The notes beneath the pieces are model-generated. The model was not told the DNA's origin. It made no database searches and was given only the letters and a program-made list of their open reading frames with translations. Positions 1,359 to 20,000 of a stretch of 20,000 nucleotides of DNA are shown here, piece by piece. The stretch is taken from contig UYFQ01000417.1 of assembly GCA_900617105.1 (NCBI GenBank), positions 44,182 through 64,181 on the forward strand, given 5' to 3'. Numbering within the stretch: the stretch's first letter is position 1; each line of letters opens with the position of its first letter. The stretch comes from Hydrurus foetidus (lineage: Eukaryota). The translations under genes were made by a program, and so were the position numbers.

Positions 1359-1420
1359 AGTTTCAGCCCACAAGAAGGAGATGCGAAACGACAAACGATG
1401 TTCTATGCTCCGTAGGGGTG

Positions 1421-3018
1421 GTGGCCGAGCTTACCGACCCTCCTCGGCCAGGCCGAGCTTAGTTCATGATCAGCTCGGCCACGGCCGAGGCGCCACTCGG
1501 CCACATTTCTTGGCCGAAGCTGGCCGAGCCATTTCGGCCTGGCCGAGCCATTTCTGTCTGGTCGAGCCATTTCCGCCTGGCCGAGCTAGTTCGGTCTGGC
1601 CGAGCTAGTTCGGTCTGGCCGAGCCATTTCGGCCTGGCCGAGCCATTTCGGCCTGGCCGAGCCATTTCGGTCTGGCCGAGTCATTTCGGTCTGGCCGAGT
1701 CATTCGGGTCTGGCCGAGTCATTTGGGTCTGGCCGAGCTAGTTCGGTCTGGCCGAGCCAGTTCAGTCTGGCCGAGCCAGTTCAGTCTGGCCGAGCTATTT
1801 CGGTCTGGCCGAGCCATTTCGGTCTGGCCGAAATGGCTCTGGCCAGTCAAATTTAGCTCGGCCAGACGAGCTGGCTCAGCTGCCATTTCGGTCTGGCCGA
1901 GCCATTTCGGTCTGGCCGAGCCAGTTCGGTCTGGCCGAGCTAGTTCGGTCTGGCCGAGCTATTTCGGTCTGGCCGAGCCATTTCGGTCTGGCCGAGCCAT
2001 TTGGGTCTGGCCGAGTCATTTTGGTCTGGCCGAGCATTCGGTCTGGCCGAGCCATTTCGGTCTGGCCGAGCATTTCGGTCTGGCCGAGCTAGTTCAGTCT
2101 GGCCGAGCATTTGGGTCTGGCCGAGTCATTTTGGTCTGGCCGAGTCATTCGGGTCTGGCTGAGTCATTTGGGTCTGGCCGAGTCATTTTGGTCTGGCCGA
2201 GTCATTTCGGGTCTGGCTGAGTCATTTGGGTCTGGCCGAGCCATTTCGGTCTGGCCGAGCTCATTCGGTCTGGCCGAGCATTTGGGTCTGGCCGAGCATT
2301 TCGGTCTGGCCGAGCCATTTCGGTCTGGCCGAGCCATTTCGGTCTGGCCGAGCCATTTCGGTCTGGCCGAGCCATTTCGGTCTGGCCGAGCCATTTCGGT
2401 CTGGCCGAGCCATTTCGGTCTGGCCGAGCATTCGGTCTGGCCGAGCTCATTTCGGTCTGGCCGAGTCATTTCGGTCTGGCCGAGCTATTTCGGTCTGGCC
2501 GAGCCATTTCGGTCTGGCCGAGCCATTTCGGTCTGGCCGAGCCATTTCGGTCTGGCCGAGCCATTTCGGTCTGGCCGAGCCATTTCGGCCTGGCCGAGCC
2601 AGTTCGGTCTGGCCGAGCTAGTTCAGTCTGGCCGAGCTAGTTCGGTCTGGCCGAGCCATTTCGGTCTGGCCGAGCCATTTCGGTCTGGCCGAGCTAGTTC
2701 GGTCTGGCCGAGCCATTTCGGCCAGACTGGCTCGAGCCGAACTAGGTCTGGCCGAGCCATACTCGGCTTCTCGGCCGACCCAAATGGCTCAGCCTGCCGA
2801 GCTAGTTCGGTCTGGCCGAGCCATTTCGGTCTGGCCGAGCCATTTCGGTCTGGCCGAGCCATTTCGGCCTGGCCGAGCCATTTCGGTCTGGCCGAGCCAT
2901 TTCGCTCTGGCCGAGCTAGTTCGGCCTGGCCGAGCTAGTTCGGTCTGGCCAAGCCATTTGGGTCTGGCCGAGCCATTTCGGTCTGGCCGAGTCATTTGGG
3001 TCTGGCCGAGCCATTTCG
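1421..3018. repeat. Subterminal minisatellite, ~19-nt unit TGGCCGAGCCATTTCGGTC (18-20 nt variants, roughly 80 units)
   Basis: Read directly. It shares the TGGCCGAG core with the right-end 9-mer array. There are locally inverted patches near 1825-1880 and 2720-2795. Confidence 0.95.
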
Positions 3019-3155: not shown

Positions 3156-3820
3156 CTAAAACAATCTCTTTTCATCATGTTTTACGACCCCTTTTGCTGT
3201 GCGTTCTGCTCTTTTATTTTGATAGATTTCAGCAGTATTCCAAGCGTCATGGAGAAAAATCAGGGCGCTTGCATCATCTGAGGTAAGTGACGATCGAAGT
3301 TTTGTGATAGTTAGACCTGCCATTGAGAAAACTCTCTCTGACGGGGCCGAAGTCGCAGGAATACACAAGACACGTCTAGCTAAGCTGCTTAATAGAGGCA
3401 AAGTTTTTTCTTTTTTCTTCCACCAAATTAGTGGATTATTCAATACCCTTACACCGTCCACTTTACAGGATAGAGCTATTGACTCCATATTGTCTCTATA
3501 GTTCTGAATCTCTGCATCTACCTTACTTTGAAGGATAGCCTCGGAATGGACACGAACAGTTGGTCTGCGGATAGAGTTCCTCAAGTTAGAAAAGAGACCC
3601 CCATAGAGTTCATTATCACTATTCGTTTCATTAGCTTCATCCTCTGGGATCTCATCTACGGAAGTGTCACTTTCTTTTGCTATCCTCAGCACCTCTCCTC
3701 GAATGTGATTGACTATTTGATCCACATCCGCCTGTGGAATACATGACATATCTTTCGTTCTAGGATCTAGGAAGGAAGCCATTAAAGTCTTCTTGGGAAT
3801 CCCCTTCTGCCTCTGTTTGG
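3156..3820 (-). pseudogene. hAT transposase C-terminal fragment (dimerisation domain), 5'-truncated at the Tc1-like TIR
   Basis: Motifs ASFLDPRTK and NPLIWWK..LPLLSSLARRVLCIPATSAPSERVFSMAG. The ORF-track start (3890) lies inside the inserted TIR and is an artefact. Confidence 0.9.
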
Positions 3821-4101
3821 CAGTGGACACACACCCCCGAACAGTACATTCCGACATTCCGAACATCGACACACTCAACCCAATCTTCAAACATCACAAT
3901 CCTAAAGGTAGACATTCTTTCACACAGCATAGAATTCACTCCTGAGCAGCTGATAACCTCGACAACGTCAGGACAATCAAGGTGCTGCTGTTCAATTCTG
4001 AAATCGGACAAAAATTGACTTCAAAATCGATTTGACAATATCGAATTTTGAAAATTTTATCATCTCATCATCGTTTTTCACATTACAATCGAATGCAGTC
4101 A
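3821..4101 (+). repeat. Left long TIR of the Tc1-like element
   Basis: Reverse complement of 14228-14499. The inner ~230 bp look identical; the outer ~50 bp are diverged. Confidence 0.93.
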
Positions 4102-6765: not shown

Positions 6766-7999
6766 TCATCTCCCACTTGCACGGTATCTTTCCTCTGCTG
6801 TGACGTTTATATGACAGTGAACAAATAAGTTGCAAGCCACATCACCAGTAATACAATTATACAACGCATGTTCAAAGTTCTTAGATACAGGAAACTTGGG
6901 ATCATCAGACGGCCACTTACTGCGACAAAAGTCTTTGGCCCGATGGAATACAAGCTCAATAGGGTTATAGTCATAACTGTAAGGTTCGAAAAAAACAGCA
7001 ATAACACCATACTCTTCACACAGAGTCACAATAGCTGCCTTATTATGTACAGGGGCATTATCATTGAACAGCACACTCTTCTCCTGAGGATAGGGGTTCA
7101 TCAATGGGAGTATCTTTTCCTCGAGAATCTTTAAGTAAGTTTCTCCATCAATAATATCCTCATGTATCGACACCATCTCTATTCCTTTTAAAGACATAGC
7201 AGCAAGGGCTGAGCAACCACCTGAAGAATATATGTATACGACACTCGGTTACAATAACACTTGTGGAGATACTGTTCTTATCGCTAAAATTACTTGTGTA
7301 GTTGATGTACCTCTATGTCCAAGTCTGTTGTACAGGTAGATAAAAGCTCTCACGTTCCTCGGCGATCTACCGTAGCGACGACGTATGGCTTTCTCAGTTA
7401 TATGACTGGAGCAATACATAGTATACGGAATTGTTAACACGAGCAATTAGAAATTGATCCTCTTGACTTTTACATTACCTCTCGTCAACGTAAAAACGCT
7501 GCTCAGCTGTGTAGATACTGGTGACTTGGAGAAAATACTGTCGTTTTATTTCATTTTGCTCTTTGGCGTGGACTTCTAATACTTTGCGAGTGACGTTTTT
7601 GCTTCTTAATCCCTGCCAAATCTGACTAACTGTAAATGTTCCAAATTCAGACGTTTGCAAGAAGTCCGCCATTTCGTGCACATAAAGGGTTGGATTAACT
7701 TTCAACTTGGAGAGTAATGCGTCCAGTGCTTGAGTTGGAATCCCAATCCAGTGCTTTTTCCCTTGACCTCTGTACTTGGGATCTGATGTATTCAATATGA
7801 AATTGACCGAAGTTACTTTTTGTTTGCTGCAAAACATCGCGAGAAATTTCTCACCAATCGATTCCCCATGTTTCCGATGTCTTATAAGCCTCCAGACTGT
7901 CCGAGAAGAACATCCAAAATGAACTGACGCTTCCATAGCATGAACCTCGTGATGGCCATGAGAGTCCATGTAATTCAGGATTAACTCACGGACTTGCTT
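6766..7999 (-). CDS. IS630/Tc1-type DD34E transposase (~363 aa reconstructed), disrupted by the LTR insertion; first 7 codons lie at 14236-14216
   Basis: Exons (14236-14216 + 7999-7479), 7405-7311 and 7220-6766 sum to 1092 nt. Motifs FYVDES, RRYGRS, LFNDNAPVH and PYSYDYNPIE, with 34 residues between the second D and the E. Removing the LTR element and one TSD restores MQSMTICKQVRELILNYMDSH in frame. Confidence 0.9.
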
Positions 8000-8003
8000 G
8001 CAG

Positions 8004-8209
8004 TGTGGTCGGACCGGCTATACCGGGCCTACGGGCCGTACCGGACCTAGTCCCGATCCATCCGATCCTACCGCCTACTGTACACATACATCTCTAGCGC
8101 AGCTGCTAGCTAGCTCTAGCCTACTCGTAGAAGTTACCCTAGCTTCTAGCTTAGACTTGTAACTAACTAACACCTCCTCTCTATCGACCTACTTCCTATC
8201 CGGACTACA
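8004..8209 (+). repeat. 5' LTR (206 bp)
   Basis: TGTGGTC...GACTACA. One mismatch seen against the 3' LTR (TCTAGC vs TCAAGC). Confidence 0.97.
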
Positions 8210-9151
8210 ATAGCGCTATTAGTCCAATCTTTTCTCTGCTACCTCTCCTTCCATCTACTCGTCCCAACCTGTAGATAAGACTTCTGAGCACCAGCTCAAC
8301 GACTTTCGAGTCGTTTTCTTCTGCAGCCATTGGCTCAGAAGACCCTAGTCTAAGTTAGAGAAAGTCAGATTACCTGCTTTCTTGGAATCCCCGTGCATTG
8401 GGCTCTTCCAAACTTGACATTTTGGTCGAAGTTGATTTATCCTTCCCAGAAGTCATTTAAGACTTGCTCCGCTGGTCGATCGAATCACAGATTCATCACC
8501 AGAGACACAAAGTTAGTCTATAGACTTCTTTTCGTCGACGTTGAGCAACGTCTTCTACCTTAAAGGTACTCCATATTTTCTACCACTCTAAATTTGGCTT
8601 TCACGCCATAGAACTTTTCAGTTCAAGAGTTGGTTAGAATCTCTTTATTCGTTGTTACTGACGTTACAGTACCCGTTCGTGAACGAGGCGAAGCTCTGGA
8701 AAAATTTTCCTGAGCAGGGCTAACCTCTTCACAGAGATACAGCCATTTTTCTTCGGAGAAATATCTCGAGCGAATAAACGATTTCTGCTCATCTTTTGAC
8801 AAGAGATACATAGAGAATTCGCATGCGGACATCATTGTCCCTTCGGATAATGATCTCTAGTATCCTATAGAATCGTTTACACCGAGTTCTGGTTGAATTC
8901 GAGATCATCCTGCTGAGTTATGAACTTAGCGCGACATCGTCGTTCTCGACTAATTTTTATCAGGTTTTGACCTAGAAAAGGTCAGAACCTCTAGAAAGAT
9001 GCCTAACAGTCATATAAACATGATCTGAAGCTTCTAATCTCTCGAATCGCTCTCAGTAGAGAGATATCGACGATTAAAGAAAATATCCTCCAAGGATTAC
9101 TGACCATCCTGAGTTCGGGGTTCGAGCCCCAGTAGGGGTGGGTCACCTTTT
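8210..9151 (+). ncRNA. Putative large structured RNA domain (chain of 20 or more hairpins) in the position normally occupied by gag
   Basis: No plus-strand ORF of 60 aa or more. Dense stem-loops, including UUCG-type loops (8298-8315, 8751-8756). Compensatory substitutions relative to the copy at 19498-20000. Confidence 0.75.
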
Positions 9152-9412
9152 CGTACATTTGAAAATGTCGTATTTTTTTTTTTTAGTTTTCAATATGTGG
9201 GTACACATTTTGTAACAATTTAACAACAGATTTCAAGTCTTTACAAGATTTTGAGACTGTAAACATTTCAAAAAAAAAAAAAAAAACATTTCACGCTTTC
9301 ACGCTTCTTACACAGCTCTATGCTAAGTAAATATATTGCAATGCAATATTACGCATTGATTGAAAAAGTGATCGTAAGTGAAATCAACCTCTTGCCTGCA
9401 CACAACACCGGT

Positions 9413-10172
9413 TAGCCATCAGAGAGGCACTGATCAATCTGTGTGGGGTACAGCGAATTCATAAAGGGTTTTATTTCATTTTACATGATATAAATTCTTA
9501 ACGTTATACACCTTTGTTAACCTGCCCGAAGGGCCATAACGGTGTGTAGCGGTCGCAAGGATCAATATAACTTGCGATTTAACAATCCTCTTTCATTCGA
9601 TGGTGAATGCAATAGCATCAGCCTGCCCATAAGGGTATACCGAAAAACAAATATCGACATATTATTTAGCCGAAACAACACTCAGCCGGGACAAATCCAA
9701 GGTACATCCTTGCCCAGGACTGCGTGGCTGTCACTTTCGATAATGATGTCTTTAATCTGACTGATGATCATGTCGAAGTGCAGCCACATGTACCTATTCG
9801 AAAACGAATATCAACATATTATTCAGCCGAGACAACACTCAGCCGGGACAAAACCAAGGTACATCCTTGCCCAGGACTGCGTGGCTGTCACTTTCGATAA
9901 TGATGTCTTTAATCTGACTGATGATCATGTCGAAGTGCAGCCACATGTACCTATTCGAAAACGAATATCAACATATTATTCAGCCGAGACAACACTCAGC
10001 CGGGACAAAACCAAGGTACATCCTTGCCCAGGACTGCGTGGCTGTCACTTTCGATAATGATGTCTTTAATCTGACTGATAATCATGTCGAAGTGCAGCCA
10101 CATGTACCTATTCGGAAGACGGAAATTGGCATATTATTTAGCCGTGATACGGTAAATAAGTATGACATTTAA
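9413..10172 (+). pseudogene. Possible decayed aspartic protease remnant
   Basis: Frameshifted fragments in retropepsin-like order: EALIN (9424-9438; N where the D of D-T/S-G is expected), GFIS, VCSG (9542), and IDILFSR / EIGILFSRDTVNKY (compare the DxILGRD motif). Broken by stops and a 157-bp tandem repeat. Recognised by eye only. Confidence 0.45.
9638..10144. repeat. 157-bp tandem repeat, ~3.2 copies
   Basis: AACACTCAGCCGGGACAAA occurs at 9677, 9834 and 9991. The central copies are nearly identical. Confidence 0.95.
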
Positions 10173-10236
10173 ACGTTAACTCCATTTGCTTTCGGCATTT
10201 CTCCTGAGCTTAGCGCTGAGAATATGAGAAAGAGTG

Positions 10237-13200
10237 ATGCTCGCATGCGAATTCGATAAGAAATACGCATCGGATAAACTCGACCCATTGTTTCAACACA
10301 GATATACGCGTCGTATGATAGCGTTGGGTGCCGAACCTGATACAGCCGTAGTCGAGTCTTTTACACCTCATTACGACAAGCTGAAATATCCAGGCGGCAA
10401 ACCATCCTCTGATAAGAGAGAAACATATGGATTGTACGAGTATCCAAACAAGAAGAGCATATTGCATGGTCAATCTTCTTCGAAGAGCAACGTCTCTTGT
10501 GTCCATACAATGTCGACATGTAACGATACTCAGATGGAAATCGAGGGAGTCATGACCCAAGATCCCTGTGGTGTTGTAGGTTGTGAGCGACTGAATAGTG
10601 TCACTACTATTCTCGCAAAACGTACGGGTGATACACCGCACCTAGGTGGCGACCAGATTCCCACCCCTACAAACACTTCTGAGGACTCTGATACCTTAGA
10701 CTATGTCACTGAGCCTTTATGGCCCAGTGGTGTCGCACTCTCAGTTGACGAGATTGACGATGGCAAGATAGATACGTTTGCCCCCTTCTTGGCGGAGAAA
10801 CCTAGTCAAGATGACTTGCCCAAAGGGCCAGAGGATTTCCTCAAAGAGATTACCTTTGAAGGAGATGAAAGCTTTCAAAGGAAGCTCCGAGAGCTCTGTT
10901 CTGAATATTCAGACATCTTCAGTGATCAATTAGCTGAGAAACCAGCGTCACTTAAACCCTTTGAGATTAACATCCCACTTGAGTTGTGGGAAAAAGACGA
11001 AAACCGTACGCCGGTACGTCCCCAGTCATCAACGAAAGAGGTTGCTCTCAAAGAAAACCTTGACGAGATGCTTGCATCAGGGGTTATAGAGCGATCAGAT
11101 GCCGCTTATTACAGTCATCCTGTAATAGTAACTAAGTCACCCGGTAAATTTCGAACCTGCATCGATTACCGGCCACTTAATAGGTGTCTTAAGCCGGCCT
11201 CATTCCCGTTACCAAATATCAAACACCTCTTTGAGAGGATCGGTAATAAAAAACCGGATATTTTTGGTGTGATGGATTTAACCGCTGGTTACCATCAAGC
11301 ACCGTTACACCCCGCACACCGCATTTTTACGGCATTCATATGCTTTGCGGGGGTATTTCAGTTTACGAGACTGCCCTTTGGTCCGTGTCGAGCCCCCTCT
11401 TACTTTCAAGAGCAGATGGTAACGGCGGTCCTCTATGGCCTTATCTATCATTGTTGCGAGATGTATCTCGACGATTGTATAGTATATGGCAAGGGTGAAG
11501 CAGAGTTTCTTACTAACTTGAAAAAAGTTTTTGCAAGATTTAGACTTAAGGGTCTAAGACTCAAAGCTAAAAAATGCCGTTTCGGCCTTCCACGTATTGA
11601 ATACGTTGGCAGAGTCGTTGACAAAGATGGTCTATCCATGTCAAAAGAGAAGATAGAAACAGTTTTAAACTTTTCTATACCTAAAAATTTAACCTTACTC
11701 AGGTCATTTTTGGGTTTAGCGAACTATTTTCGACAGTTTGTACCAATGCATTCCACTTTGGTTAAGCCAATGCAGGATATGATTGATCACTCTGCTCCGA
11801 GACGTTCTGCTGTAGTTTGGACTCAAAAGAGCACCAACTCATTTGTTGACACAAAGATTGCTATATCTCGTTGTCCATTAATGTACTTCATTGATGACAA
11901 TAAGTTAGACATCCGCTTGTATACAGACGCATCCGACTTTGGTATCGGTGGGGTCTTATTCCAAGTTGTTGGTGCCATTTGGCAACCAATTGCTTTCATT
12001 AGCAAATCGTTGACACCCACACAAATAAGGTGGTCTACGATACAAAAAGAGGCTTATGCCATCTTCTTTTGTTGTACACAACTCGATTATCTAATCAGAG
12101 ATCGTACGTTCACTATCCATACGGATCATTTGAACATAACATATATGAAACAAAATCCTACCTCAATGGTGGCGAGATGGTTCATTGCTATGCAAGAACT
12201 AGATTTTACCGTGGTATTCGTACCCGGTACTTCGAATGTTTTGGCAGACGCACTGTCAAGGCTTTGTCCTAATCTGACAGAAATTGCTCTGCCATTACGA
12301 ACAGAAGAATTGGAATTACTTCCTACTTCATCATCGTCTTTCACTGTATCAGCTCTGACGGTCATAGAACCAGCTTCAGACGATCAGTTAGAATACATTC
12401 AAATGTGCCACAATGCAATTGTCGGTCACAACGGCGTAGACCGTACCCTTACTCGGTTGTTTAGTTTACAACAAGTATGGAAACACATGAAACAACATGT
12501 ACGTACGTTCATACAGAACTGTCCGTGTTGTCAAAAGTTGAGTGCAAAAGATCCTAAGATCAATGCGTCTCATTTTGCAACTTCAAATTATGCTATCTTC
12601 GATACGCTAAATGTTGACTATATTGGTCCATTTCCTGACAAAGGTTATATCCTTGTCATCATCGATACATTCACACGATGGACAGAATTGTTCTGGTGTG
12701 CAGACGCAGATGCTAAATCAGCAGCTGACTGTTTGCTTGCGCATTTTGGTCGATTTGGATCACCAAATATGATTAGATCTGATCGAGGATCACATTTCGC
12801 AAATGAATTGATCAAAGAATTCTTAGATCTTTGTGGAACACCACATAATCTCACCCTTGCTTACTCGAAACAAGAGAATGCAATTGTTGAAAGAGTCAAC
12901 AAAGAGGTGAATAGACACTTAAGAGGTTTAGTTTTTGATAAACAAACCCTTGAGGGATATGCTAAGTCAATCCCATTCGTGCAACGTATCATTAACGGTT
13001 CAGTTAATAGACGCACAGGTGTCTGCCCCGCTCATTTATTGTTCGGGAACAAACTTGATTTGAATCGTGGTATTCTCACTCCACACTTAAGTGTCGGAAC
13101 ACATTCAAGATCAACGTACATATCAGATTTGATAAGTGTACAAGACAAAGTACTTGAAACTGCGGTTCAAACTTTGTTAAAAGCGGATGCTAAAAATGCC

Positions 13201-13662
13201 GCGTCAGCTGAATCAGCGACTGTGTTCCCCGTGGGGTCATATGTCTTATGCCGATACACTGATCGACCTCCAACTCGATTACATACTAAGTGGCATGGCC
13301 CTTACTGTATTGTCTCCTTTAAGGGGTCCGAGTATGTTATCGCTAATCTTGTAAACCACAAGACACGAAGTGTTCACGTCAAGAATTTGAAAATATTCAA
13401 TTATGACCCAGAGGTAGATATACCTGCTGACACTGCTCGTCGCGATTACATGGAGTTCGTGGTTGAGAAAGTTCTGGGTCACGCTGGTGACACCAAGAAA
13501 CCGACTACAATGTCGTTCCATGTTAAATGGCTCAACTACGATGACTCTCATAATACATGGGAGCCGTGGAAATCACTACGGCTCTGTGAAGCACTCCATG
13601 ATTATTTACGGGATAATAAAATGAAACATTTCATTCCCAGGAACATTGAGACATCAGCCTAA
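10237..13662 (+). CDS. pol: Pol polyprotein: reverse transcriptase - RNase H - integrase - chromodomain (no protease domain)
   Basis: RT: CIDYRPLN, DLTAGYHQ, LPFG, YLDD. RNase H: LYTDASDFGIG, HTDH, ADALSR. Integrase: HNAIVGH..CPCC, VDYIGP, SDRGSHF, VERVN, WHGPY. Chromodomain: VEKVLGH..VKWLNYDDSHNTWEP. An in-frame stop at 10225 lies upstream. Confidence 0.96.
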   Translation: MLACEFDKKYASDKLDPLFQHRYTRRMIALGAEPDTAVVESFTPHYDKLKYPGGKPSSDKRETYGLYEYPNKKSILHGQSSSKSNVSCVHTMSTCNDTQMEIEGVMTQDPCGVVGCERLNSVTTILAKRTGDTPHLGGDQIPTPTNTSEDSDTLDYVTEPLWPSGVALSVDEIDDGKIDTFAPFLAEKPSQDDLPKGPEDFLKEITFEGDESFQRKLRELCSEYSDIFSDQLAEKPASLKPFEINIPLELWEKDENRTPVRPQSSTKEVALKENLDEMLASGVIERSDAAYYSHPVIVTKSPGKFRTCIDYRPLNRCLKPASFPLPNIKHLFERIGNKKPDIFGVMDLTAGYHQAPLHPAHRIFTAFICFAGVFQFTRLPFGPCRAPSYFQEQMVTAVLYGLIYHCCEMYLDDCIVYGKGEAEFLTNLKKVFARFRLKGLRLKAKKCRFGLPRIEYVGRVVDKDGLSMSKEKIETVLNFSIPKNLTLLRSFLGLANYFRQFVPMHSTLVKPMQDMIDHSAPRRSAVVWTQKSTNSFVDTKIAISRCPLMYFIDDNKLDIRLYTDASDFGIGGVLFQVVGAIWQPIAFISKSLTPTQIRWSTIQKEAYAIFFCCTQLDYLIRDRTFTIHTDHLNITYMKQNPTSMVARWFIAMQELDFTVVFVPGTSNVLADALSRLCPNLTEIALPLRTEELELLPTSSSSFTVSALTVIEPASDDQLEYIQMCHNAIVGHNGVDRTLTRLFSLQQVWKHMKQHVRTFIQNCPCCQKLSAKDPKINASHFATSNYAIFDTLNVDYIGPFPDKGYILVIIDTFTRWTELFWCADADAKSAADCLLAHFGRFGSPNMIRSDRGSHFANELIKEFLDLCGTPHNLTLAYSKQENAIVERVNKEVNRHLRGLVFDKQTLEGYAKSIPFVQRIINGSVNRRTGVCPAHLLFGNKLDLNRGILTPHLSVGTHSRSTYISDLISVQDKVLETAVQTLLKADAKNAASAESATVFPVGSYVLCRYTDRPPTRLHTKWHGPYCIVSFKGSEYVIANLVNHKTRSVHVKNLKIFNYDPEVDIPADTARRDYMEFVVEKVLGHAGDTKKPTTMSFHVKWLNYDDSHNTWEPWKSLRLCEALHDYLRDNKMKHFIPRNIETSA

Positions 13663-13986
13663 GTTGCTGATCTCGAACGTATTATCTTTTGAAGATTTTT
13701 CCTAATTTTTTTCCTCTATGAGGTTTTTATGGTTTTAGTCAGTAAAAATCTGACATAATTACGTATCGAGGTCTCGTGCGCAAGTACATGGTACTAGGCA
13801 CCCACCTTATCGCCTTGACCGACCCACCACCAAGTCTATTTGTATAGATTTTTATTTTTATACATTTCAATGTATTATTAGATTTACATATTTGTAATCT
13901 TTTTCTTTATTATTCCTTTAGTTAGTTTTAGTTGTATTAGATTTTTGTACAAAACGTGGTGGTCGCGTCATAGGTTCTTTTTCTTC

Positions 13987-14009
13987 AGAAAAAAGATAAG
14001 TGGGGGTGA
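13987..14009 (+). other. Polypurine tract
   Basis: AGAAAAAAGATAAGTGGGGGTGA directly before the 3' LTR. Confidence 0.85.
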
Positions 14010-14215
14010 TGTGGTCGGACCGGCTATACCGGGCCTACGGGCCGTACCGGACCTAGTCCCGATCCATCCGATCCTACCGCCTACTGTACACATACATCTC
14101 TAGCGCAGCTGCTAGCTAGCTCTAGCCTACTCGTAGAAGTTACCCTAGCTTCAAGCTTAGACTTGTAACTAACTAACACCTCCTCTCTATCGACCTACTT
14201 CCTATCCGGACTACA
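14010..14215 (+). repeat. 3' LTR (206 bp)
   Basis: Direct repeat of 8004-8209. Confidence 0.97.
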
Positions 14216-14227
14216 GCAGATTGTCAT

Positions 14228-14499
14228 TGACTGCATTCGATTGTAATGTGAAAAACGATGATGAGATGATAAAATTTTCAAAATTCGATATTGTCAAATC
14301 GATTTTGAAGTCAATTTTTGTCCGATTTCAGAATTGAACAGCAGCACCTTGATTGTCCTGACGTTGTCGAGGTTATCAGCTGCTCAGGAGTGAATTCTAT
14401 GCTGTGTGAAAGAATGTCTACCTTTAGGATTGTGATGTTTGAAGATTGGGTTGAGTGTGTCAATGTTGGAAAAGTACCGTTCGGGGTGTGTGTTCACTG
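14228..14499 (-). repeat. Right long TIR of the Tc1-like element (contains the transposase ATG)
   Basis: Inverted copy of 3821-4101. Confidence 0.93.
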
Positions 14500-14521: not shown

Positions 14522-14759
14522 TAGTTGACTGAGTACTTTGGCCGAGCTGGCCGAGCTGGCCGAGCTGGCTGAGTTGGCCGAGCTGGCCGAGCTGGCTGAG
14601 TTGGCCGAGCTGGCCGAGCTGGCCGAGCAGGCCGAGTACTGGCCGAGTTGGCCGAGTTGGCCGAGATGGCCGAGAAAATGAAATTCAGCTCGACCAAGAC
14701 CTCGGCCAGTGGCCGAGGCCGAGCTGGCCGAGCTGAACTCGGCCCGGCCACCAGCCCTA
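14522..14759. repeat. hAT right end: 9-nt TGGCCGAGC subterminal array plus TIR
   Basis: Direct repeat of 1112-1358; ends in CCAGCCCTA. Confidence 0.85.
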
Positions 14760-15010
14760 TAATATATGCTAGTATACAGTAATCAACCGGTATCCACGGT
14801 TGATTTCGGTACCCTACATTCAAACTTTCAAACTAGTGGCTGATTGATTATCCACACACACGGATTGATTCGATGTGTGAGGGTTCCATTCCACTCGGTG
14901 AGCAATAGAATACACCAGCAGCAGGATATTGTCGGAGATCTCAGTGGCGTCTCGCCGCCTCAAAGGCAACACACGCGCGTCTGGTTTCCTCACGTCTACC
15001 CGCAAACAAA

Positions 15011-17500: not shown

Positions 17501-18301
17501 TTACTTGTAGCGAGGAGAGTCGTCCTTGAGGAGGCCATAATAAGTCCAGATAGGATCCATCTCCCACACAGGGAGGGTGAACAAACTGTTCTTCTTTGTC
17601 AGGAGACCAGCATAGGCGGCATACCAGGCGATAATGGCCGCAATGATGCCGCAGATACCTCCTGCGCGTTGCACGTACAGATCGCCTCCTCTGAACTGAG
17701 CGATCGAGAGGAACAGGAAAGTAAGGAACACCATGAAGAACAGCACAAACAGAACCATTGTGGTTCTGTGAGATGCGATGCACATGAACAGAGAGAACAT
17801 GCCCCAGGCCAGCAGGTAGATGCCAAGGCAGTCGTGGAGATCTTGAATTGGCGCACCGGCCTGGAAGTAAGGCTTCAGGAAACCGAACGCATCGATGAAC
17901 AAGGCGCCGAAGGACATCCAGAAGCCACCATATGATGAGAAAGCCAAGGCACCGAAAGTGTTGCCGGTTTTGAACTCCCACATGCCGGCTAGAAGCTGGC
18001 AAAGTCCACCGTAGAACAGTGCGAGGCCCATGACGACACCGTGGGATTTGGCGTTGAGAGAGACAATTGCTCCAGTGTTATACATCGACAGCACGAAAGT
18101 AGTAAGCGCGAAGCCGCAAAGACCAAGAGGAGCGGGATTCGCAATTGTTGGGAACTGCTGGGAGAGGAAGCCATGTAGCTTCTCTTCTTTCTCGAAGTAC
18201 CGGTAGGTTGGGTTGGCAATTGGTTGGACATCGGTGAAGGCTTTTCCCTCGACTCCGATCTCGATGTCAGCGACTTGGTTGGAAATCATTTGGACCGACA
18301 T
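17501..18301 (-). CDS. GPR1/FUN34/YaaH (Ady2/SatP, AceTr) acetate uptake transporter
   Basis: Signature ANPAPLGLCGFALTTF, plus FYGGLCQLLAGMWEF and GNTFGALAFSSYGGFW. About six hydrophobic segments; intronless, 266 aa. Confidence 0.95.
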   Translation of the reverse strand: MSVQMISNQVADIEIGVEGKAFTDVQPIANPTYRYFEKEEKLHGFLSQQFPTIANPAPLGLCGFALTTFVLSMYNTGAIVSLNAKSHGVVMGLALFYGGLCQLLAGMWEFKTGNTFGALAFSSYGGFWMSFGALFIDAFGFLKPYFQAGAPIQDLHDCLGIYLLAWGMFSLFMCIASHRTTMVLFVLFFMVFLTFLFLSIAQFRGGDLYVQRAGGICGIIAAIIAWYAAYAGLLTKKNSLFTLPVWEMDPIWTYYGLLKDDSPRYK

Positions 18302-18470
18302 ACTTCGATGTTGGAAATGTTGGATAATATGAATCTATCCCCAAAGTGTCGAGTGATTGTATAGGCTGATGACGGCGTGACATCACGCCACGAGCTGTTC
18401 GCTTGAAGTTGACGTTAGCAAATATTTGGTGATGACCGTTTGATTTCCTTTGGTTGAGAGGTGCCCTCGA

Positions 18471-19291: not shown

Positions 19292-20000
19292 TGTGGTCGT
19301 ACCGGGTATACCGGGCCTACGGGCCGTACCGGACCTTGTCACGATCCACCCGATCCTTCCGCCTACAGTACACATACAGCCCTACCACGACTAGCTAGCT
19401 AGCTGCAGCCTACTCGTAGAAGTTACCTAGCTTCTAGCTTAGTTGTAATCTAACTACTACCTACTCGTCTTTAGCTCTTCCCTCCATCCGGACTACAATA
19501 GCGCTATTCGTCCAATCTTTCTTCTACTACTTCTCAGTCCATCTATCTGTCCCCAACTTTTAGATAAGACCTCTGAGCTATCTATAGTCCGCCACGGCCG
19601 ACTTCTCTTGCAGCTTTGAGCTCAGAGAACCTTAGTTTAAGTTAGAGAAAGCCAGCATACCTGCTTTGAATCCCTAAGTTTGGGCTCTTCCATTCTTTAA
19701 GTTTCCGGTCGAAGTCGAAAGATCCTTCCCGAGATTCATTAAATATCTGCTCTGACGGTCGATTGAATAACGGATTCATCACCGCTGACATAAGATTAGT
19801 CAAGAGACGTCTTTTTGTCGCTGGAAAGCAGCAGCATATACCTTAAAAGGTACCCAGATTTTATACCACTCAAAATTTGGCTCTTAAGCCATTGGACTTT
19901 TCAGTCCAAGTGTTGGTTAGAATCTTCTAACGCATTGTTACTGACGAAACAGTACCCGTTAGCGAATAAGGCAAACCCCTTGCAAATTTTTTGACAAGAG
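19292..20000 (+). mobile_element. 5' part of a second, diverged element of the same LTR family (LTR 19292-19497 plus structured internal region), running off the window
   Basis: 206-bp TGTGGTC...GGACTACA LTR homologous to 8004-8209, followed by the same AATAGCGCTATT palindrome and sequence collinear with 8210-~8718. Confidence 0.93.
19498..20000 (+). ncRNA. Second copy (partial) of the structured RNA domain
   Basis: Same hairpin order as 8210-8718, with stems maintained by different sequences. Confidence 0.7.

Follow-up and report, generated by a model that had tools for sequence, protein, structure and literature searches.

The question raised by this locus is how a Ty3/Gypsy retrotransposon with neither gag nor a working protease could have moved recently with its pol intact. 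The element lies in a 20,000-nucleotide stretch of Hydrurus foetidus DNA, here called the window, and its features are collected in Table 1. It descends from one gag-PR-pol element, its gag body has been lost and its protease has decayed, the same form recurs in other samples, and the copy in the window was integrated recently. We consider it probable that this is a recent copy of a non-autonomous subfamily with broken protease and intact pol, which uses the Gag and the protease of sister elements.

Table 1. Features of the element and of its second family member in the window.
Feature	Positions	Strand	Remarks
Left target site duplication	8000..8003	+	4 bp; empty-site joint shares 4 letters in runs X1 and X5
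5' LTR	8004..8209	+	206 bp, TG...CA ends, AUG-free
12-nt perfect palindrome occupying the position of the primer-binding site	8209..8220	+	same letters in the second element (19292)
Family-wide structured 5' leader, AUG-free	8210..8719	+	77% identity to the second element; z -6.0
Subfamily-specific non-coding insert in place of gag	8720..9165	+	window-type contigs in X10, X15, X8
AT-rich linker containing T runs and A runs	9166..9365	+	candidate splice acceptor at 9186
Protease N-half relic	9366..9673	+	left edge approximate; catalytic Asp codon changed to Gly (9447-9449); stops, deletions, frameshift
Three tandem 157-bp units	9644..10114	+	each a protease snippet and the last ~45 gag codons
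Protease C-half	10113..10250	+	one stop; frameshift at ~10249 separates it from pol; 83% to P0001 610-655, frame unlike that of pol
Intact ORF, 1141 aa	10237..13662	+	spacer, RT, RNase H, integrase (HHCC, DDE, GPY), chromodomain
Polypurine tract	13987..14006	+	from sequence
3' LTR	14010..14215	+
Right target site duplication	14216..14219	+
Second family member, 5' LTR and leader	19292..20000	+	LTR 87%, leader 77% identical

The insertion and its pol

The direct LTRs with TG...CA ends, the target site duplication, the polypurine tract and the order RT-RNase H-integrase (Pfam) are those of a Ty3/Gypsy LTR retrotransposon. As an earlier note on this DNA had reported from the letters alone, the LTR pair (8004-8209 and 14010-14215) is nearly identical, with one difference in 206 sites (at 8147), and the 4-bp duplication, GCAG, is perfect. 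The empty site, in which 7999 is joined to 14216, was found in contigs of runs X1 and X5, and when the element is removed in silico, the Tc1-like transposase frame that it interrupts regains its start.

The RT-RH-IN-chromodomain ORF of ~1141 aa described in that note is indeed unbroken. The open frame extends over 10228-13662 with its AUG at 10237, RVT_1, RNase H, H2C2, rve and Chromo were all recognized by Pfam, and the catalytic motifs are present at the expected places. The chromodomain lies at the C-terminus of the integrase (PF00385, E 1.6e-10), as in chromoviruses. The ORF is 98% identical to proteins P0366 and P0367 and 78% identical to the full gag-pol protein P0001; with 1141 aa of coding sequence, the element is neither a LARD nor a TRIM, which have no coding capacity.

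Loss of gag and recurrence of the layout

That the element has no gag, as previously claimed, was borne out by two types of search: tblastn of 8210-9365 finds no gag relic, and a frameshift-aware gag profile scored 12.7-16.2 over the same interval, with null means of 13.6-15.3. All that survives of gag in cis is the tail of ~45 codons. A gag hidden by stop-codon read-through or recoding was rejected, with mixed stops in all six frames and the profile at background. The protease relic, which had been given as a possible one, is real: the frameshift-aware profile scored 90 against a null of 13, and tblastn matched 9452-9673 to residues 541-620 of P0001 at 51%. A working aspartic protease is absent in cis, considering the Gly at the catalytic codon, the stops, the tandem insert and the frameshift. 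The frames of the 157-bp unit match gag P0430 at its C-terminal tail and the protease-bearing P0302 at its N-terminus; the end of P0430 and the start of P0302 are the same DNA, which is this unit.

The absence of Pfam or motif matches alone cannot show loss in this clade, because standard searches also miss the proteases of the relatives (no Pfam protease match in 15 of 15 scanned). The named look-alikes of the protease region were all retropepsin families (0.90-0.91), which we take as a lead; PDB sequence searches were empty, and the predicted protease model (pLDDT 39.7) was unusable.

The earlier proposal that the element moved in its gag-less form and belongs to a lineage is supported by the same layout in other copies, by the N-terminus created by the frameshift, with which one other assembled protein also begins (P0216, among 120 matches listed), and by a relic that has diverged far more than the LTRs. 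Contigs of the window type, with the insert (8720-9259) and the still-frameshifted protease relic, were found in three of four runs, which come from separate studies. Between the window element and the copies in X10, X15 and X8, the relic has diverged 5.8-6.8%, against 0.5% between the LTRs, whereas the insert differs by only 1.3-2.5% (Fisher p 0.001, 0.0001 and 0.009); pol, too, has drifted by about 2%. The gag-less layout is therefore a lineage and not a one-off, and this is the unusual feature that remains after the follow-up.

Helpers in the family and the retention of pol

The sequences of the family indicate that potential helpers exist in it. The full-length proteins closest to it, the best three of 120 listed, each have gag, PR and pol in a single ORF (1788-1823 aa, 65-78% identity), and in the tree the window element nests among gag-PR-pol relatives with full support. 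The chromodomain Ty3/Gypsy proteins P0001-P0003, 65-78% identical in pol, resemble it in the spacer, the domain order and the position of the DTA-type motif, but unlike the window element they carry gag (zinc knuckle of P0001 at 327-342) and protease in one frame. Short matches to the N-terminus of the ORF reach at least 75% identity in 86 of the 120 listed; 27 of these fragments continue without a change of frame into the C-half of the protease, and seven (78-87% identity) keep the catalytic DTA-type motif. None of the 86 leads from a gag body into the protease in one frame, the earliest start being at P0001 residue 476, and a length-matched search for an intact gag-PR-pol of the same family showed no representative above 81% identity. 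The P0430-type gag is predicted to fold like a retrotransposon capsid, with Copia CA as the best match (Z 8.6, rmsd 9.3, 154 aligned), followed by Ty1 Gag CA-CTD (Z 6.5) and PEG10 (Z 6.4); Foldseek with this model gave no E under 0.001. Indirectly, gag and family protease fragments coincide three times on contigs of exactly equal size of at least 3 kb, where the null has a mean of 0.28 and a maximum of 2 over 120 offsets. In the search for a partner with shared LTR or primer site, fragments of the family's gag and protease turned up, as did a second type with the leader, but no intact partner and no leader-to-gag contig. Viral contigs scanned for the DNA loci of the element gave nothing relevant; the LTR-PBS motif had 0 matches in metagenome contigs, the gag motif had three loci there, genome contigs gave one locus, and none of these four loci matches the element.

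A specialised parasite of a helper's Gag, one of the options put forward earlier, is then the best reading, with Gag and protease carried by the family. As in the gag-borrowing type represented by Tos17 and BARE-2, Gag is absent, the pol ORF is long, the cis signals are intact and movement was recent. Since the element RNA retains the family LTRs, the palindromic primer site, the AUG-free leader and the polypurine tract, helper Gag would package it, and helper RT and IN would copy it and then insert it. Co-packaging with helper RNA would lead to template switching that refreshes LTR, leader and pol while the protease relic drifts, and the 8720-9165 insert could be a cis-acting RNA passenger or a spacer replacing gag. 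However, helper recombination fails to explain why this subfamily-specific insert has changed less than the relic.

BARE-2 of barley retains Pol and relies on the Gag of a sister family, and most of its gag sequence is kept but untranslatable. The window element is like BARE-2 in Pol retention and, probably, in dependence on a sister's Gag; it differs in having no gag body and a broken protease. The helper-dependent, Pol-retaining lifestyle of the best reading is already known from Tos17 and BARE-2. The earlier note, which divided non-autonomous types into those that lose coding capacity (LARD, TRIM) and those that borrow Gag (BARE-2), overlooked the gag-less, pol-retaining Tos17 and RN304 (PMC3977881). 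These rice Copia elements (Sabot 2014) lack gag, have a long pol ORF and intact LTRs, PBS and PPT, are mobile, and are thought to borrow Gag from the complete relative Lullaby, whose PBS is near-identical (PMC3977881). Tos17 and the window element share the absence of gag, the long pol ORF, the intact cis signals and mobility. On the other hand, Tos17 is a Copia element with a clean gag loss without remnants, while the window element belongs to Ty3/Gypsy and has a chromodomain, an insert without coding capacity at the place of gag, a gag tail in tandem repeats and a dead protease. A literature search of partial coverage found no gag-less, protease-dead, pol-intact Gypsy element from a protist. 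What is added to the gag borrowing known in cereals is a Gypsy lineage that has lost its protease as well, yet retains 3.4 kb of pol, along with an RNA insert that is new and conserved.

This raises the question of whether pol has been kept through helper recombination or through use in cis. In the first case the lineage would be a clean natural record of parasite-helper template switching; in the second, it would show packaging of Pol without fusion to Gag. A reading that we regard as rather unlikely, but ahead of the other alternatives, makes the element a Pol donor within a two-part family: the frameshift would have put a stand-alone Pol in frame from AUG 10237, and the insert RNA might aid its translation or, by analogy with foamy virus, carry it into the helper capsid. 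We give no more weight to the corresponding idea of a split retrotransposon, a Pol-only partner in which the insert that replaced gag would drive the translation of Pol or tether it to its own RNA, the complex then depending on a sister's capsid and protease cleavage; if true, RNA-bridged, foamy-like Pol packaging would have arisen in Ty3/Gypsy.

In favor of a Pol donor, pol is much better kept than the adjoining relic: it differs by 2.0-2.3% in amino acids, a value against database proteins and so unlike in comparator to that of the relic, which is against run contigs. Simulated 6% neutral drift of pol gave ~13% change and 7.5 stops, with no stop-free case in 300. Furthermore, the insert is conserved across samples, and the N-terminus created by the frameshift recurs in P0216, one among the 120 matches listed. 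Precedents could be found in foamy virus, whose Pol is synthesized independently of Gag and enters the particle by way of RNA (PMC3705302; PMC3196705), and in Fatima of wheat (Ty3/Gypsy), which has two subfamilies with 91% LTR identity and dissimilar internal regions, one with pol and weak gag similarity and the other with gag and AP (PMC3129301). The likeness to foamy virus is an analogy confined to the packaging of a Pol made without Gag; foamy Pol contains its own protease and comes from a spliced mRNA of an autonomous genome (PMC3705302). The pol subfamily of Fatima retains the protease; in our family the window element has lost it and the protease fragments continue into pol. Against a Pol donor, 28 AUGs in 8720-10240 (10237 included) mean that scanning cannot reach 10237, and no splice joint was present among the contig joints listed (15 of 58 in one listing). 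In addition, the broken copies P0444, P0295 and P0276 use the same AUG after other indels, and gene callers yield such starts near any frameshift. Run X17, RNA by record or by guess, had only three contigs, none in the insert, and is uninformative on expression.

A further alternative is a single old defective locus or dead-end deletion copy, the other samples merely containing the same host species. Many family fragments are broken, as it would predict, yet we find it improbable: the LTRs are 0.5% apart while the relic is ~6% from the copies of other samples, and X1 and X5 have the empty site while sequence of the window type reaches high depth in them (as a rough hint, 2304 for one insert contig in X5 and 136 for the empty-site joint).

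The leader, the insert and RNA folding

The domain of 940 nt of hairpins proposed earlier does fold strongly, since 8195-9190 reaches z -8.2, below all shuffles, but it is not special. It consists of two parts with different distribution, separated at 8719. In all four runs, other copies carry the same leader followed by a different continuation, and the summed contig depth of the leader is ~10 times that of the next segment; in X15 the other leader-bearing type has depth 52.5 and the window type 15.7, bearing in mind that contig depth is not copy number. Only 30 letters past the split were read in the other leader-bearing copies, so that their leader would be linked to gag by presumption. The relative at 19292, said to share the RNA domain, shares only the leader part of it (8210-8719); it ends at the window edge, ~5 nt short of the split, and is thus uninformative on gag loss.

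The leader has no AUG where 7.3 are expected (0 against ~7 in each of the two elements), and it probably holds packaging and priming signals. Its folding is shared by the rest of the element: the two halves of the leader region gave z -6.0 and -3.8, 500-nt pieces of pol -2.8 to -5.8, and the leader of the second element just -1.7. Strong folding is then element-wide, with pol about equal to the leader. Doubly changed pairs are still paired between the two elements in 8/10 and 5/7 cases, but all changed pairs together are kept in only 16/41 and 10/29.

In Ty3/Gypsy elements the protease frees RT and IN inside the particle. A capsid-free autonomous retrotransposon, in which folded RNA would replace Gag as the scaffold of an unprocessed Pol, would accord with the lack of gag and protease in cis, with a leader that folds below all shuffles and with the doubly changed pairs, but it is extremely unlikely: the RNA half common to the 19292 relative behaves as an ordinary AUG-free family leader, pol folds as strongly, few changed pairs are kept overall, and kin at 78-87% identity bear Gag and protease. 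The need for a capsid is not overturned by this element.

A tRNA encoded by the element was rejected, with no tRNA gene found by ARAGORN, and self-priming of the Tf1/Sushi type (pairing of the PBS with ~11 nt within the LTR) is unsupported, the longest complementary run being 6 nt and absent from the second element. Rfam covariance models gave no match to E 5 anywhere in the element. The insert (8720-9165) folds at z -3.8 with five AUGs and no gag score, and it is closed by a T-arm-like hairpin (9114-9165) that is also present in another sequence type.

Recent insertion of an element without gag or protease

The element is a precise and recent insertion, since its LTRs are nearly identical, a 4-bp duplication lies on either side of it (8004-14215), the empty-site joint 7999 -> 14216 is present in contigs of the sequencing runs X1 and X5, and the Tc1-like transposase frame on its left regains its start once the element is excised in silico. 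It was found in 20 of the 24 runs listed (in 16 of them with at least half of its words), which come from one organism and from freshwater biofilm, sediment and other metagenomes. Together with the GPR1/FUN34 gene close by, this would point to a freshwater microbial eukaryote as the host. In the surroundings, the 19-bp array and the duplicated 9-bp-period block are probably the ends of a DNA transposon, and the acetate-transporter gene is the sole clear host gene within the window.

Features of the element and its surroundings (window positions)
Feature	Position	Strand	Remarks
9-bp-period repeat block	1129-1367 and 14530-14768		two copies, 96% identity
Tandem array	1416-2950		long, GC-rich, 19-bp period
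hAT transposase, C-terminal piece	3156-4101		
248 bp of the hAT piece, inverted	14228-14475		98% identity; right of the element
Tc1/IS630-like DDE_3 transposase with HTH	6766-8003 and 14220-14236	-	first codons hold the retrotransposon
LTRs	8004-8209 and 14010-14215		1 differing site between the pair
Leader	8210-8719		
Insert	8720-9165		at the gag position
Protease relic	9366-10250		
Three 157-bp units	9644-10114		between the protease halves; each a protease snippet joined to gag tail
pol ORF	10228-13662		RT, RNase H, integrase, chromodomain; catalytic motifs intact
GPR1/FUN34/YaaH acetate-transporter gene	17501-18334	-	E 3e-68; seemingly intronless

At the primer-binding position, the element and its diverged family member (the second element, from 19292) carry an identical, perfect 12-nt palindrome (8209-8220 and 19497-19508), which begins without TGG and sits within a hairpin formed with the LTR end. 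The palindrome does not match Tf1-type self-priming; it could also be a dimerisation signal. Both 4-bp TSDs and elements in which no PBS can be detected are a recognised minority (PMC6317226).

Each of the three best relatives encodes gag, PR and pol as one ORF of ~1800 aa (78, 67 and 65% identity). Against one of them, P0001, window 9452-9673 aligns to residues 541-620 (51% identity) and 10113-10250 to residues 610-655 (83%), with a frame shift into pol at ~10249; the protease catalytic codon of the relic is Gly. The earlier note saw no gag-sized ORF between the 5' LTR and pol. The gag body is missing, since a frameshift-aware profile reached no more than background over 8210-9365; on the protease relic such a profile scored 90 vs 13 for background. 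The note also saw no D-T/S-G protease: the loss holds by alignment, but that criterion is uninformative, since the nearest relatives carry a DTA-type motif and none of 15 relatives scanned matched a Pfam protease domain, so intact relatives would fail it as well. As a lead, the named look-alikes of the intact protease region are retropepsins.

In some runs, contig depth over the 157-bp unit far exceeds that of the remaining subfamily sequence (470 in one X15 contig vs 15.7 for the insert; 75,000-93,000 in X1), and there are X5 contigs that omit the array. The unit may belong to an array that varies, or may be a satellite that arose from the element.

Leader, insert and folding

The supposed RNA domain is two separate things, divided at 8719. 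Summed contig depth drops about tenfold around 8720-8760 in four of four runs, and in all four of a second run set a contig matches the window up to 8719 and then departs, the non-window sequence extending >200 letters in three of them; past the split, no more than 30 letters of this other type are known. Depth in X15 is 52.5 for the diverging contig and 15.7 for window-type sequence. The second element, whose LTR is 87% and whose leader is 77% identical, stops at the window edge, just short of the equivalent of this split. Neither leader contains an AUG (7.3 expected up to 8719, 7.6 in the second), as would befit a translated 5' leader. A candidate splice acceptor (8717-8719) is the exact point where the two leader types part, possibly by chance.

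Of the large structured RNA proposed earlier, the folding is real (z -8.2 for the 996-nt region), but it is element-wide: z was -2.8 to -5.8 in six pol pieces, -6.0 and -3.8 in the two halves of the leader and -1.7 in the leader of the second element, and ran from -2.7 to +1.5 in four stretches of host DNA close by. The element RNA as a whole, with the pol stretch 10601-13660, lies well below shuffles in its folding and neighbouring host DNA mostly does not, which suggests genome-scale ordered structure in this RNA. Base pairs are partly conserved from one leader to the other, with 8/10 and 5/7 doubly changed pairs still paired but only 16/41 and 10/29 of all changed pairs. Rfam and tRNA searches of the RNA domain gave no match. 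At 9114-9165 there is a T-arm-like hairpin whose core resembles a Pol III B-box; this 52-nt piece also occurs, with differing flanks, in another sequence type (X8, X10, X15), whose left flank appears by eye to retain the enclosing stem.

A lineage with uneven divergence

In X10, X15 and X8, which stem from separate studies, the insert is spanned by contigs with the window's layout (insert and dead protease), and none was found in the shallow run X17. Divergence of these contigs from the window is 1.3-2.5% in the insert (4.0% in one X8 piece, half of which is shared leader), compared with 5.8-6.8% in the relic (Fisher p 0.001, 0.0001 and 0.009). Two of the window's stops are missing from these relics, and the frameshift 3' of the catalytic motif stays in them, judging from the indels listed; the same frameshift-made N-terminus opens both the window ORF and the database fragment P0216. 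The pol product differs from P0366 at 17/733 residues and from P0367 at 12/593, whereas 6% neutral drift would yield ~13% amino-acid change and 7.5 stops. Judged by these comparisons, this is a lineage under apparently uneven constraint across insert, relic and pol. They therefore place the decay before the insertion, as the earlier note had claimed.

Possible helpers and mode of movement

Among the 120 listed of 125 short matches to the first 230 residues of the ORF, 86 have at least 75% identity; 27 of these continue in frame into the protease and seven have the catalytic motif. The window falls inside this fragment group in the tree. A large set of gag fragments (50-63% identical to P0001) belongs with them, because the DNA at the end of gag P0430, that opening the protease-bearing P0302 and the window's 157-bp repeat are the same. 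Moreover, three gag fragments lie on contigs matching exactly in size (at least 3 kb) those of fragments 81-87% identical to the window (null mean 0.28; 31 by 34 hand-entered fragments, short contigs excluded). The model of the family gag (pLDDT 72) best matched a Copia capsid (Z 8.6, rmsd 9.3, 154 aligned), followed closely by Ty1 Gag, PEG10, MOAP1, dArc and Ty3 capsid domains. Three points speak against such helpers: the representatives listed include no intact full-length member with more than 81% identity, no family fragment reads a gag body in frame into the protease, and the other leader type is covered by only the 30 letters past 8719 noted above.

The family, in contrast to single-ORF P0001, may express pol via frameshift. 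All five family proteins passing the protease start (P0302, P0304, P0199, P0209, P0278) begin within the gag tail, and the end of P0430 is out of frame, in the same spot as in the window's 157-bp repeat; some loose contig ends look in frame.

It is established that gag and protease are lost, that pol and the cis signals are intact, that the layout recurs, that movement was recent and that there are kin with Gag and protease. Probably, the Gag of a helper, a sister element of the family, would package the element RNA via the family leader, helper enzymes would do the processing and copying, and template switching in mixed particles would renew pol. That the RNA brings the element's own Pol into the particle is unlikely, yet viable because the insert is conserved and helpers cannot refresh it; against it are 28 AUGs within 8720-10240 and the lack of a splice joint among the joints listed. 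A single dead locus fits worse and is somewhat less probable still, and the capsid-free replication once suggested, also a worse fit, is very improbable.

BARE-2, which relies on the Gag of a sister family, is one precedent. Gag-less, pol-keeping elements are already known, and this element extends that type: like it, the published Tos17 and RN304 are without gag and keep pol, and Lullaby's Gag is thought to be used (PMC3977881). Other sources describe separate gag and pol subfamilies in Fatima (PMC3129301), non-autonomous Athila families with ORFs retained under purifying selection and with recombination (PMC2410132), seven sugar beet families with pol remnants but without GAG/PROT (PMC13570524), and a foamy Pol made without Gag (PMC3705302).
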